UHGV virus genome: UHGV-0030196
Direction: 5' to 3' (one strand)
From: a virus
Length of the DNA: 61,145 bases
The position numbers and the translations under genes were made by a program. The notes beneath the pieces are model-generated. The model was not told the DNA's origin. It ran no database searches and saw only the letters and a list, made by a program, of their open reading frames with translations. Of the stretch, positions 13,641-22,204 are shown piece by piece. How positions within the stretch are numbered: the first letter of the stretch is position 1; each line of letters begins with the position of its first letter.

Positions 13641-13954
13641 GCTGGCGGGGGTGGGGAAGGGCAGAAATCATGATACTCCGCCAGTGCGCCGGAACTATGA
13701 CGGTCGAGAGTATTGGGAAGCTGATCGGTCGTACCGGTGATGCCGTCAGGACTAAAGCGCGGGAGCTGGGGATCAGCATGATTCTGAAAGGAGACTTTCA
13801 TCCGTCAGCCAAATACCGGCAGAGCGATATAGAACTGGCGCGGCAGCTTCATCAGTGTGGCGTTCCCCGCCGTGAGATCGCGGAAAAACTCGAAATGTCC
13901 CTGGGCATGATTAATCAGTACGTTTATTTCGAAAGGAGAGTGTATGAAGTCTGA
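13637..13954 (+). CDS. Hypothetical HTH-like protein
   Basis: GTG 13637 overlaps upstream stop; alternative ATGs 13670 and 13697. Confidence 0.4.
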   Translation: MSWRGWGRAEIMILRQCAGTMTVESIGKLIGRTGDAVRTKARELGISMILKGDFHPSAKYRQSDIELARQLHQCGVPRREIAEKLEMSLGMINQYVYFERRVYEV

Positions 13955-14426
13955 AGGTTTAACGCCCGCACAACTGGCAGAGCGTAACGCTGAGTATGTA
14001 ACGGAAATTTCCCGACTTGAGAAAGCGTGTGCTGCGCTGGCGGCGGAGAATGCGGGGCTGAATAAATTTATCGCACAGAGTTGCTACGTGTTTGATGGCG
14101 AGCAGGATGAGCTATCTGATGCGTATATCTGCGCAATAGAAGGAAAGATGCCGCAAACCCCAGCCACCGATGCTTTTTTGGCTGAAATTCGTGCGGCGGC
14201 TCGCAACGAGGGGATTAACTATACCGCAAGCCGTCTTGCTGCTGCTTTCAACCACGGATTTATCAATAAGTCTTTACGTGAAGTTTTCGACGTTACGCGC
14301 ATGATTCTGTCAGCGAAAGAAGAGTTGGCTAATGAACCGCACCCGATTGATGGCCTGTCCGGTGAATATGCGGAGAAATCCCTTGAAGAATGGGCGGAAC
14401 AGATTCGCAAAGGAGCTGACAAGTGA
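13944..14426 (+). CDS. Coiled-coil protein, paralog of 14842..15537
   Basis: Shares CAALAAENAG and TPATDAFLAEIRA motifs with the downstream paralog; SD aaaggagag. Confidence 0.55.
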   Translation: MKSEGLTPAQLAERNAEYVTEISRLEKACAALAAENAGLNKFIAQSCYVFDGEQDELSDAYICAIEGKMPQTPATDAFLAEIRAAARNEGINYTASRLAAAFNHGFINKSLREVFDVTRMILSAKEELANEPHPIDGLSGEYAEKSLEEWAEQIRKGADK

Positions 14427-14833
14427 AGAAGATGATTTTTGTGGCGGCATTGCTGACCATTACCCAACAGGCGCAGGCTTCAGCAGTTATTGTGGCATCT
14501 ACCGCCGCGACCACGGCTGCTGTAGCTGCTGCGAACTCTGCGAATATCGCAAACCAACAGTCACAGCGTGCTGCCAATGCATCAGCCAGTGTTCACCCAA
14601 TCGCCATTAAGACCGGCAAGAAAAATATAGGTTTCATAACATGCGGCAAACGTTCTGACGAGGCTGTAGGTTCACTTGGATGTACGGTATATGGGGGTAG
14701 TGAGAGTAGAGAAATTCCATGGAAAACGTGGCCCGGATATGTTCTCGGCTCGAAGCTCCCTGCCAGCTATGAAGTAAACGCCGTATCGTTTGATCACTAT
14801 AACGGCGTGGCAACGGTCTATTTTGCATATTGA
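14423..14833 (+). CDS. Secreted Ala/Thr-rich protein, paralog of 21776..22204
   Basis: Signal peptide; shared C-terminal block GFITCGKR...VGSLGC...EIPW..WPGY.LG.KLP.SYEVNA.SFD.YN.VATVYF.Y. Confidence 0.6.
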   Translation: MKKMIFVAALLTITQQAQASAVIVASTAATTAAVAAANSANIANQQSQRAANASASVHPIAIKTGKKNIGFITCGKRSDEAVGSLGCTVYGGSESREIPWKTWPGYVLGSKLPASYEVNAVSFDHYNGVATVYFAY

Positions 14834-14841
14834 GGCTCCGC

Positions 14842-15537
14842 ATGAAATTCTCCAAATTTTCTGAGTTGGTGAATCGTATTTTGTCCAACAACCACAGCCA
14901 TCGTCGCGATATGGATGTAACGATCGTTGTTCATTCGCCTGGCAGCATTGGTTCAACACCCTCAGTTGAGGTTCAGTCAATTCACGCTGGTTTTGATTGG
15001 GATTCCGGGAAAGTGCTGATTTTCCCAGCACAGCCACTGACCACGCTAACACCAGAACAGATTACTGATATTACTGATAGTGTGCGCAAAGGTCAGTCCT
15101 GGCACGCATATCAGGAATACAAGAAGCATAAAGAGCAGTTGGAAAAATTATCGATTGAACTTGATGCTGCAAAACAGCGCATTGCAGAGCTGGAGGGTAA
15201 TTGCGCGGCGCTGGCGGCGGAGAATGCGGGAATAAAGTCTGCAATTCCAGAATCACGGGATATTGAGGATGACAATGACAATATGGATGACGTATCTCTC
15301 GCGGAAGACTTCGGGTTCAATCATGCAATAGAACGGATGAGGAGACAGATACCTGAAACGCCAACCACTGATGCTTTCCTGGCTGAAGTCCGGGCGCAGG
15401 GATTGGAGATGTTTGCACAGAAATGTAACTCAAAATCCGAACAGTCATTTGCATCTGATATACGCGATAACTGGAAACTACTCGGTGAACATGCCACTGA
15501 CTTTGCCGCAGAGCTTCGCAAGGGAGGGAAACAGTGA
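14842..15537 (+). CDS. Coiled-coil protein, paralog of 13944..14426
   Basis: ATG 14842 (track start is TTG 14830); shared motifs. Confidence 0.5.
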   Translation: MKFSKFSELVNRILSNNHSHRRDMDVTIVVHSPGSIGSTPSVEVQSIHAGFDWDSGKVLIFPAQPLTTLTPEQITDITDSVRKGQSWHAYQEYKKHKEQLEKLSIELDAAKQRIAELEGNCAALAAENAGIKSAIPESRDIEDDNDNMDDVSLAEDFGFNHAIERMRRQIPETPTTDAFLAEVRAQGLEMFAQKCNSKSEQSFASDIRDNWKLLGEHATDFAAELRKGGKQ

Positions 15538-20364: not shown

Positions 20365-21245
20365 TCACTATTACCAAAGAGCGACTACTGACAATTAAGC
20401 AGTGGCGCGAAACATACGGACCTGGTAGCAACGTTGTACTGCCAGCAGAAGAAGCGGAAGAACTGGCACGAATTGCTCTGGCATCGCTGGAGCAGAATGT
20501 ACTATCGGGCAACTCTCCGCTTATTCCTGGTGAAGTGTTGTCCGCAATCCGGGAGGTTGCCAGGATTCGTGCCGATTTCGATGATTTTGACGGTGACAGG
20601 CGAGGTATCGGTGATTGTCTGGATGAGGCCGAGCAAGAGCTTATCGTTACCATTAACAAATATGCCAGTCAGTTGGCAGCAGAACCGATAGCGACTAATG
20701 ACGTTCGAGAGCAAACAGCCGTTCCGCCAATACAGGCTGATGTCGCGCAAGCAATTGAAAATCTCAAGCAGAAGTTAGTGGAATGCAATCGCTATAACTA
20801 CTGCGCAGATGCAGTGAAGAACGTAGAGGATGCCTGCCGTGCTGTTAGCTATAGCCAAGCCGACAATCAGCCAGCATCTGGCAACCAGGCTGCCGAATCC
20901 AATCGCGGTAATGAGTGGACTGGCAATCCTGATATTGATAACGCCATCATCATGCTCGACCGCATAGATACGCTGGAAAATTGCGATGATGACCGTATTG
21001 AGGCTGTTAAGGCTGTTTTGCGTAGACTGGCTGGCAACTCTCCGGTAACTCCGGATAGTTGGATAAGCTGTAGTGAGCGAATGCCCGCTCAAGATGATTG
21101 GATTTTAATTTATTCAAAGCACGGCGAGTATATGGCAGGCCAGGTGCAAGGGGAATACGTGGAGTTGAGCGACGGCACTTTATCGTGGTTAGGGAACGCC
21201 TTGTACTGGATGCCGCTACCAGAACCGCCGCAGGAGGCGAAATGA
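20361..21245 (+). CDS. Protein with DUF551-like C-terminus
   Basis: C-terminal SERMP...W.L...G...W.PLPEPP. Confidence 0.45.
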   Translation: MITITKERLLTIKQWRETYGPGSNVVLPAEEAEELARIALASLEQNVLSGNSPLIPGEVLSAIREVARIRADFDDFDGDRRGIGDCLDEAEQELIVTINKYASQLAAEPIATNDVREQTAVPPIQADVAQAIENLKQKLVECNRYNYCADAVKNVEDACRAVSYSQADNQPASGNQAAESNRGNEWTGNPDIDNAIIMLDRIDTLENCDDDRIEAVKAVLRRLAGNSPVTPDSWISCSERMPAQDDWILIYSKHGEYMAGQVQGEYVELSDGTLSWLGNALYWMPLPEPPQEAK

Positions 21246-21502
21246 TGGATGTAAAAGAGAAGGTTTTGCAGGTGATGCGTTCCCGGGCTGCCCTGCAAGA
21301 TAAAGCTCTCGGCGGGGAATATCCATTCAGGATGGCAACCTGGAATCTGCGGTTGGCAATGGAGAAGGAATTTCCTGATGAAGAATGGCGCTCGGCAGAT
21401 TTGCGCAAAATTCTTATGGAGCTGGCTAAAGACGGAACAGTATCCAAAGATACCCATGCCAGCCGGATTGGTCAGGCGGTATGGAGACTGGAGGTGAGGT
21501 AA
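21242..21502 (+). CDS. Hypothetical protein (86 aa)
   Basis: ATG 21242 with SD aggagg, overlaps upstream stop. Confidence 0.4.
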   Translation: MMDVKEKVLQVMRSRAALQDKALGGEYPFRMATWNLRLAMEKEFPDEEWRSADLRKILMELAKDGTVSKDTHASRIGQAVWRLEVR

Positions 21503-21783
21503 TGGCTAACCTGCAACTTGCCGTCAAAGGTGAATATTTCGACCAGATGAAGTCTGGAGAGAAAACGGAAGAGTATCGCCTGTGTAATGACTACTGGAAT
21601 AAGCGAATTATGTTCCGGGAGTATGACCGCCTGATTATCACAAAGGGATATCCGAAGAGCGACGATTCCAGCCGCAGAATTGACGTTCCGTATGAAGGAT
21701 ATGAAATCAAGACAATCACACATCCCCAATTCGGCGATAAACCGGTAAAGGTGTACGCGATAAAGGTGAATATCAATGGCTAA
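21502..21783 (+). CDS. ASCH-domain-like protein
   Basis: LAVKGEYFDQMKSGEKTEEYR resembles the ASCH N-terminal signature. Confidence 0.45.
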   Translation: MANLQLAVKGEYFDQMKSGEKTEEYRLCNDYWNKRIMFREYDRLIITKGYPKSDDSSRRIDVPYEGYEIKTITHPQFGDKPVKVYAIKVNING

Positions 21784-22204
21784 ATTTCAAAGAGCTATTA
21801 TTTTTCTGGCTATGTTATCAGCCAGTCATTTATCCCACGCGTCAGTTATTGCCGCTGGAGCGGCGGCAACAGCGGCGGCAACAGCAGCGACCACGGCGGC
21901 AGTAAATGCTTCTATCGCCAGCGAGCAAGCGCGGCGTGCTGCAACCAATGCTTCCGCAAACACCACCACGGTATCAGTAACACAAGAAAAGCCGAATATC
22001 GGATTTGTTACTTGTGGCAAGCGATATGGTGAAATGGTTGGCTCTCTTGGTTGCGTAATGTGGCAAGACGACGACCGAACAGAAATTCCGTGGAACTCAT
22101 GGCCTGGCTACATTCTTGGTAAGAAGCTGCCCACCAGCTATGAAGTAAATGCTATTTCGTTCGACCAATATAACAGTGTTGCAACGGTCTATTTCTCTTA
22201 TTAA
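21776..22204 (+). CDS. Secreted Ala/Thr-rich protein, paralog of 14423..14833
   Basis: Signal peptide plus shared C-terminal block. Confidence 0.6.
   Translation: MAKFQRAIIFLAMLSASHLSHASVIAAGAAATAAATAATTAAVNASIASEQARRAATNASANTTTVSVTQEKPNIGFVTCGKRYGEMVGSLGCVMWQDDDRTEIPWNSWPGYILGKKLPTSYEVNAISFDQYNSVATVYFSY

Follow-up and report, generated by a model that had tools for sequence, protein, structure and literature searches.

The window analysed here is the whole 61,145-nucleotide (nt) stretch of UHGV virus genome UHGV-0030196, in which two pairs of related genes were observed within a long plus-strand array of small genes. One pair encodes small predicted exported proteins, referred to as type A (copy 1; 14423..14833) and type B (copy 2; 21776..22204), and the other encodes coiled-coil proteins resembling Ea22 of lambdoid phages (13944..14426 and 14842..15537). 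All four open reading frames (ORFs) lie on the plus strand, and all were present as described in an initial annotation of the sequence, which had taken the two pairs for duplicated modules. Judged by sequence, the window is a P1/D6-like phage-plasmid, because of its megablast relatives and the flanking genes ref, hot and humD. When the array was searched using megablast, P1, D6, RCS47, SJ46 and P7 were matched at 90-94% identity over 23-36% of its length, as were more than 1000 non-mobilizable plasmids of ~90 kb from Escherichia, Salmonella and Shigella; the best match was pKOr024_2 (69% covered, 95% identity; 99.1% across 12900-16290). The array (12853..24330) is the long accessory operon of this phage-plasmid and runs from a small membrane ORF, which follows the divergent ref gene, to hot. 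Its many small genes are tightly packed, neighbours overlapping or abutting, and number ~26-27 rather than the ~30 initially estimated.

The type A protein (136 amino acids (aa), GTG start) consists of a predicted signal peptide (residues 1-19, with the predicted cleavage site between AQA and S), an Ala/Thr-rich linker and a C-terminal domain from approximately residue 66, which contains Cys74 and Cys87. The type B protein (142 aa) has the same layout: residues 1-22 form the predicted signal peptide, with the predicted cleavage site between SHA and S, the linker is of the (AATA)n kind, and Cys80 and Cys93 lie in the C-terminal domain. The two proteins were found to be 48% identical end to end (BLASTP, E=1e-46), so that the relatedness and the conserved C-terminal block initially proposed are significant at the protein level, and the 3' ends of the two genes have 122 nt in common at 77%. 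A single profile, phrog_8805, covers both (copy 1, E=7.8e-85, residues 1-136 of 136; copy 2, E=1.5e-48, residues 8-142). Good Shine-Dalgarno sequences precede both starts. Signal peptides were judged by manual rules (a positive n-region, a hydrophobic core of 7-15 residues and small neutral residues at -3/-1), and the rules agreed with the predicted export of both proteins: MKK/IFVAALLTIT/QQAQA precedes S in type A and MAKFQR/AIIFLAMLSA/SHLSHA precedes S in type B, each with 2 K/R within the first 8 residues, a hydrophobic core of 10-14 residues and small residues at -3/-1. Across family alignments of 21-32 members the -1 Ala was invariant or near-invariant and the n, h and c regions were conserved, followed by a short, hydrophobic mature N-terminus (VVI/AVIV). 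No lipobox ([LVI][ASTVI][GAS]C) was found in either copy, as the predicted cleavage site neither contains nor adjoins a Cys and the mature cysteines are the two of the C-terminal domain.

The two Ea22-like genes lie on either side of the type-A gene. The first (13944..14426) encodes a short protein of 160 aa that comprises the coiled-coil end and the C-terminal module with no N-terminal domain; it matched phrog_614 (5e-56), phrog_368 and phrog_492, and no Pfam family at E<=0.01, so that PF13935 (Ead_Ea22) was not among its matches. The second (14842..15537) encodes a long protein of 231 aa with an N-terminal domain, a coiled coil and a C-terminal module (Ead_Ea22, 3.7e-09; phrog_368, 7e-70); its ORF opens at a TTG at 14830, and the start annotated in its relatives corresponds to the ATG at 14842. 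A third Ea22-like gene is found further downstream on the plus strand (18989..19654; Ead_Ea22, 2.3e-27). Against PF13935, which has a gathering threshold of 27 bits, the long protein scored 37.7 bits and the third 96.7 bits. The short and long proteins were 45% identical over a 73-aa block (BLASTP, E=3e-13), which bears out the relationship first suggested by a shared identical stretch of 23 nt. This 23-mer, GCGCTGGCGGCGGAGAATGCGGG, occurs at exactly two places in the window (14034-14056 and 15208-15230), with 0 expected from shuffled sequences, and extends to 29 nt at 93% between the two copies (14028..14056 and 15202..15230, plus strand). Its translation, AALAAENAG, falls where the coiled coil ends (CAALAAENAG for the extended copy 1), and a diverged version of the motif, assigned to repeat family D3, lies at 19356-19374 in the third gene.

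Similarity is significant within each pair, all four genes occupy one strand of a single operon, the Ea22-like genes flank the type-A gene and the identical 23-mers are only 1.17 kb apart, all of which would be expected had segments or genes been duplicated within this replicon and then diverged. The exported pair argues strongly against such in-situ duplication. Using Nei-Gojobori counts, the proportion of synonymous differences (pS) between the type A and type B copies of the window was 0.845, which is saturated, and the nonsynonymous proportion (pN) was 0.19 in the C-terminal domain. Each copy has orthologues of 97-100% identity in elements without the other copy, and copy 2 is a clean cassette indel, since comparison with pKOr024_2 revealed an exact 429-nt presence/absence cassette (21771-22199) with conserved flanks. 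The 23-mer in turn is found in at least 120 unrelated contexts, and pKOr024_2, the closest relative, has a mismatch in the long copy. In-situ duplication is thus highly improbable; the homology within each pair reported in the initial annotation is real, and the local duplication reported with it is not upheld. Because synonymous sites are saturated and the C-terminal domain is under purifying selection, both exported genes are, on these measures of divergence, old and functional: the dN/dS ratio (nonsynonymous to synonymous rate) of the type-A C-terminal domain was 0.12 against a copy from Mu-like prophages, and for type B dN was 0 at a dS of 0.05-0.07 (dS overall 0.05-0.35).

The distribution of the two types was then compared. 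Type A was 100% identical in pKOr024_2 and was present in 29 PLSDB plasmids, with D6-like plasmids among the carriers. A copy of 99.5% identity was located in a lambdoid (ymfK/yfdPQR-type) prophage of E. coli O111:H2, where it forms part of the early-left operon next to Ea22-like, DUF4014, HNH and DUF551 genes. A copy of 88.7% identity was located in Mu-like prophages between the MuB/DUF2786 genes and gemA/mor, with homology limited to 14409-14852, that is, the gene and ~15 nt on either side, and a copy of 77.7% identity in the lytic Vequintavirinae phage Av-05. Type B was identified in 32 PLSDB phage-plasmids (85-98% identical), mostly directly 3' of a gene annotated as ASCH. The sequence comparisons indicate that type A and type B are two anciently diverged subfamilies of phrog_8805, each an independently mobile single-gene cassette with its own slot, type A between Ea22-like genes and type B directly after the ASCH-like gene.

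No plasmid with both types was found in PLSDB (29 with type A, 32 with type B). When 5426 complete E. coli genomes were considered, 97 had one of the genes, at 47 places on chromosomes and 54 on plasmids; among the matches listed from these genomes, no replicon with both was found. Mutual exclusion of the two types was considered and rejected, as ~30 x 32 / ~1100 related plasmids gives ~0.9 expected co-occurrences and the 0 observed is not significant; the combination of types A and B in the window is rare but unremarkable. One sequence, NZ_CP122510.1, was listed with '2 places' and was considered as a second carrier of both types, and was discarded as a redundant linear assembly in which the same type-B gene is repeated; the 414-nt ORF between its Ea22 genes encodes another Ea22-like protein. 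Parts of the accessory array lie at both ends of this linear sequence (1-14927 and 89500-96279) with the same protein accessions occurring twice, a transposase fragment lies at position 1, and such repeats inflate 'two-copy' counts. The repeats are probably an assembly artefact or the result of insertion sequence-mediated rearrangement. In the case of phage Av-05, a segment (NC_025830.1 68539-74769) was observed to match the window at 14410-15147, 15185-15417, 18360-18992 and 23313-23411, so that a lytic phage shares at least four accessory genes with the temperate array; for one of them, the nucleotide sequences are 94.9% identical across 633 nt. An earlier survey (PMC3945230) reported no recent mosaics (>90%) linking temperate with virulent phages, and exchange across lifestyles of the kind seen here deserves attention.

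The exact 23-mer was found in at least 120 IMG/VR viral contigs, and the matches listed yielded 90 unique contexts of 203 nt, in 89 of which the motif was in frame. Across these contexts pairwise identity dropped to background (0.33-0.5) within 1 nt to the left and 6 nt to the right of the motif, and the flanks fell into 17 left and 27 right classes, which were present in 47 combinations and formed 23 four-gamete quartets. Homology to the window ended at 14055-14062 for D6 and two other relatives (L015 and L011) and at 15241, just after copy 2, for a further relative (L014). In D6 orf91, L011 and L015, which were not selected for the motif, the 20-nt core was intact and was followed immediately 3' by at least five unrelated versions of the sequence. 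Because its flanks are shuffled in many combinations, the 23-mer bears the signature of a recombination junction.

A simpler origin of the identity would be the conserved peptide AALAAENAG combined with E. coli codon bias, in which case the motif would be a passive by-product with no role in recombination. The motif is indeed coding and in frame in 89 of the 90 contexts, it uses the common codons GCG and CTG, and the peptide is conserved in Ea22-like proteins. The codons themselves speak for identity at the DNA level, beyond that of the protein, because all 7 codons of the core ALAAENA are identical (with different codons used at adjacent identical residues), compared with 6 of 12 identical-residue codons in a second conserved block, TPxTDAFLAExRA, and about half in the flanks. 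Seven codon matches would arise by chance with a probability of ~4e-4, by our rough estimate from E. coli codon usage. In addition, the homology of several relatives ends exactly at the motif, and the four-gamete quartets surround it. A passive by-product is therefore considered unlikely, and the comparisons identify the 23-mer as a family-wide mosaic junction in Ea22-like genes, not a relic of duplication in this element. A hypervariable slot, in which the type-A gene is located, has the motif as its left anchor: the distance from the motif to the DUF4752 gene is ~0.3 kb in L015, ~1.3 kb in D6 and 1.7 kb, including the type-A gene, in the window.

The length of the 23-mer equals the lower bound of the minimal exact pairing segments given for Red-beta (23-27 bp) and is slightly under that given for RecA (31-34 bp; PMC3945230). 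The motif contains a Chi-like sequence, GCTGGCGG, one base off Chi, which occurs 12 times in the window (2.1 expected). The Chi octamer itself, GCTGGTGG, occurs 48 times in 61 kb compared with 1.7 expected from dinucleotide shuffles (within the array, for example, at 16633, 17129, 17370, 17703, 22131, 22576, 22681, 22984 and 23728), and P1 is known for its high density of Chi. On the minus strand, copy 2 of the exported genes contains a perfect Chi site (22131-22138), and copy 1 has a non-Chi variant at this place.

Taken together, the region appears to be a mosaic early/accessory operon in which both pairs are paralogues joined by mosaic recombination, rather than by duplication in place, and we assign this reading a probability of roughly 0.7. 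The structural and evolutionary side of the explanation is held with good confidence, and any particular function of the exported proteins is at best tentative. The operon would draw on a gene pool common to the lambdoid exo-xis/ea and nin regions, and the upstream and C-terminal halves of Ea22-like genes would have been joined repeatedly at the 23-mer by homologous recombination between co-resident phages, prophages and plasmids.

The exported family is small and confined to phages and prophages of Enterobacterales (~110 clusters at 90% identity); among 1.84 billion proteins, 13 representatives (50% identity) were found at E<1e-10. One source labels a member of phrog_8805 'Prophage exported protein', and literature searches for the family yielded nothing relevant. 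The sole NCBIfam match of the exported proteins, T7SS_Rv3446c, was discarded as sub-threshold and low-complexity. The C-terminal domain of ~70 residues has the pattern GFVTCGK..SLGC..IPW..WPGYxLG..LPxSYxVxAxSFDxYNxxATVYFxY, with two invariant cysteines 12-13 residues apart, and the hairpin after the second cysteine is its most variable part. The C-terminal ...VYFxY was considered as an outer-membrane beta-signal or DegS-type signal and rejected, as a barrel would need a far larger domain and extensions beyond the pattern are found in some members (YTEKK, YFEYR, YFEYW). A domain-only model built from a 32-sequence alignment reached a predicted local distance difference test score (pLDDT) of 86.9 and a predicted template modelling score of 0.74, and displayed four strands, a helix and two strands. 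Because the sole Foldseek match of this model in the PDB and BFVD was a member of the same family, the fold, as modelled, is unmatched in these two databases. The DUF1471/YhcN-YdgH family, which comprises small periplasmic domains of enterobacteria, likewise gave no significant sequence or fold match to the exported proteins.

The low-complexity segment between signal peptide and domain (Ala/Thr/Gln/Asn) was highly variable in length. In copy 2 it is encoded by 3.5 units of a 12-nt tandem repeat, AGCGGCGGCAAC (21859..21900, plus strand), which gives rise to the (AATA)n linker. Type-B orthologues of 134, 138, 142 and 152 aa differ by in-frame indels at exactly 21859-21900, with the C-terminal domain conserved across these length variants and identical in most, and the length polymorphism of the copy-2 linker looks slippage-driven. 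Members of 109-120 aa lack the segment altogether. The description 'Ala/Thr-rich' in the initial annotation is thus true of both proteins of the window and does not define the family; because short members do without it, the Ala/Thr stretch is identified by comparison as a linker, neither a membrane anchor nor a family hallmark.

A mechanism may be proposed for the exported proteins as follows. Going by the lambdoid pL and Mu early operons in which the same gene is found, their synthesis would fall early in lytic growth; they would be exported by the Sec pathway, cleaved by signal peptidase I at the predicted AxA-type site and released into the periplasm, where the two invariant cysteines could form a disulfide closing the conserved loop CGKRxxExVGSLGC. 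There they may bind a target in the envelope or on an incoming phage, the most likely roles being superinfection exclusion, receptor masking or inhibition of a periplasmic enzyme. The variable hairpin after the second cysteine may set specificity, and two diverged copies might then provide two specificities. On a bolder version, phrog_8805 would represent a class of periplasmic phage effectors that has so far gone unrecognised, its disulfide-loop fold being an orphan. Such effectors, traded as single-gene cassettes among P1-like, lambdoid, Mu-like and also lytic phages, might serve in superinfection exclusion, mask receptors or debris, or inhibit a periplasmic enzyme, the two copies here would provide two specificities, and the Chi-like 23-mer would be a selected recombination signal; this version seems rather unlikely.

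Several points count against parts of this account. The flank analysis was conditioned on the exact 23-mer, so that its counts describe Ea22-like genes with the motif and those lacking it fall outside, and the third Ea22 gene of the window and one in NZ_CP122510 carry diverged versions. Conservation at the DNA level could also result in part from the repeated spread of one segment rather than from a selected recombination site. The envelope or exclusion role is the most speculative element, being drawn from localisation signals and gene neighbourhood, and the type A and type B proteins matched nothing in Pfam, NCBIfam, PADLOC or the PDB sequences; the early timing is suggested by synteny with the lambdoid pL and Mu early operons. 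Finally, the full-length AlphaFold2 model of copy 1 was poor (pLDDT 53) and placed residues 2-54 in one helix.

This long helix, together with a Kyte-Doolittle score of 1.3-1.7 over 19 residues of the Ala/Thr stretch (borderline for a membrane helix), would fit proteins that stay anchored in the inner membrane as a helical hairpin or in the manner of a signal-arrest-release (SAR) protein and act there, for example in lysis control or in blocking injection. Such anchoring is nevertheless improbable, as the shorter members without the Ala/Thr stretch retain a signal peptide and an AxA site, after which the sequence is polar (e.g. VVITKPHDYTPER), near-identical orthologues differ in linker length through repeat slippage, and the model that supplies the helix is of low confidence. 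Alternatively, the proteins may act as periplasmic inhibitors of a murein hydrolase or other enzyme through the disulfide loop, and not as receptor-masking exclusion factors. Ivy and, functionally, T4 Sp provide the comparison for a periplasmic inhibitor mode. The invariant Cys-x12/13-Cys loop (CGKRxxExVGSLGC) within a small exported domain and the location of the genes in early regions of both temperate and lytic phages would suit an inhibitor. Against this reading, which is given a low probability, the proteins resemble neither Ivy nor PliC/MliC nor any inhibitor of solved structure in sequence or fold.

The remainder of the array and its surroundings were also annotated. The context genes of the array are ref, ppp, hot (at 24064, at the end of the operon) and humD (at 24454, after the operon end). 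On the minus strand, divergent from the array, 12166..12744 encodes a Ref-type RecA-dependent nuclease involved in recombination enhancement (Pfam RecA_dep_nuc, 8e-35; named Ref in D6 and pKOr024_2), which provides context for a recombination-prone element. AT-rich repeated elements (TTGATCAATATCG ... GATAATCAAAATTGATT), a candidate operator or promoter, lie in the intergenic region from which ref and the array diverge (12745-12852). Promoter-like sites were depleted within the array (8 compared with 18.3 expected from shuffles), a strong terminator-like hairpin lies at 23775-23804, and no site matching the P1 C1-operator consensus was found in the window with up to 3 mismatches allowed.

The first large gene of the array (13017-13640) matched DUF4406 (7e-34) and phrog_355, annotated as nucleoside 2-deoxyribosyltransferase (2.5e-42), which hints at a role in nucleotide metabolism or nucleotide modification at the head of the operon. 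Pfam bore out three of the genes named in the initial annotation, the phosphatase (Metallophos, 9e-15), DUF968 (1e-44) and DUF551 (1e-10). The ASCH-like gene (21481..21783, plus strand), with whose 3' end the type-B cassette slot begins on its left side, stood less firmly: it matched phrog_625 (7e-49), and its score against Pfam PF04266 (ASCH) was 14.2 bits (E=0.073, profile positions 1-23 aligned), below the gathering threshold of 21.2 bits, with its orthologues named ASCH by the Prokaryotic Genome Annotation Pipeline. Similarly, the 171-aa protein described as nuclease-like (19849-20361; phrog_9263/631, PHROGs of unknown function) gave no match in a Pfam search, and its D...E-A-K layout (PDAMGF...LIEAKC), which resembles a PD-(D/E)xK nuclease core, was judged by eye only.

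Further small envelope-targeted products were observed at 12853-13017, 15779-16072, 22510-22668, 22751-23125 and 23804-24076, three or four of which are predicted membrane proteins, DUF4752 among them. A 90-aa ORF with a lipobox-like AMSGC (phrog_7757) directly follows the terminator-like hairpin. None of 10 array proteins searched, including both exported proteins, matched the PADLOC defence-protein models. Elsewhere in the window, a cluster of five tRNA genes was observed on the minus strand at 36120-37381 (Met-CAT, Ser-TGA, Thr-TGT, Tyr-GTA and Arg-TCT).

What appeared to be internal duplication thus resolves into two textbook modes of phage mosaicism within one operon, namely the swapping of whole single-gene cassettes at gene borders and the joining of protein halves at a short in-frame motif. 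The modular theory of phage mosaicism is said to go back to Susskind and Botstein, and the junction motif clearly exemplifies the exchange of modules through linkers that has long been proposed. Members of the exported family are passed among phages of four very different lifestyles, and for this reason the family can reasonably be put forward as a candidate factor in phage-phage or phage-host interaction at the envelope. The phrog_8805 family was already catalogued, though never characterised, and the Ea22-like genes belong to a known family or are related to it. Current views stand, and the value of these results lies in a cleaner annotation and two modest testable leads.

Among known systems, the accessory operon of P1 and D6 has the same backbone genes in the same order (ref, DUF4406, ppp, DUF968 ('pdcB-like'), hot and humD), and the shared blocks are 87-94% identical to D6 and P1. 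The array differs in that only 35-36% of it is common to D6/P1, the remainder being other cassettes, and neither exported-protein gene is present in D6 or P1 themselves. With T5 Llp, Cor of phi80/HK022/N15, and Sp and Imm of T4, all small phage envelope proteins that block superinfection, the exported proteins share small size, export and a position in early or accessory regions of both temperate and lytic phages. T5 Llp also relies on a disulfide. Llp and Cor are lipoproteins, however, whereas the exported proteins have no lipobox, and they show no sequence or fold similarity to this group.

The Ea22-like proteins of the array share with lambdoid Ea22 a three-part organisation of N-terminal domain, coiled coil and C-terminal domain (PMC10834534), a location in an early accessory operon and a high sequence diversity, as documented among lambdoid phages (PMC7093339). 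They differ in that the host element here is a phage-plasmid and not a lambdoid phage, and in that the 160-aa protein at 13944 is without the N-terminal domain and matches PHROG families only; a pro-lysogenic effect is known only for Ea22 of lambda and of a Shiga toxin (Stx) phage. The 23-mer resembles the linker or boundary sequences at the module junctions of lambdoid phages, and the comparison extends to relaxed homologous recombination between phages (PMC3945230, PMC2327257), in being a short conserved stretch with unrelated flanks in many combinations; lambdoid linkers lie between genes, whereas the Ea22 motif lies inside a coding region at a domain boundary. The exchange observed here crosses P1-like, lambdoid, Mu-like and lytic myovirus groups, between which such recent mosaics were rarely or never seen previously (PMC3945230). 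At the level of the whole operon, likening the array to the lambdoid ea/nin regions, as was done in the initial annotation, proved apt, since the same genes are found in a lambdoid early-left operon, and the array may be viewed as the phage-plasmid counterpart of the lambdoid exo-xis/ea and nin regions.

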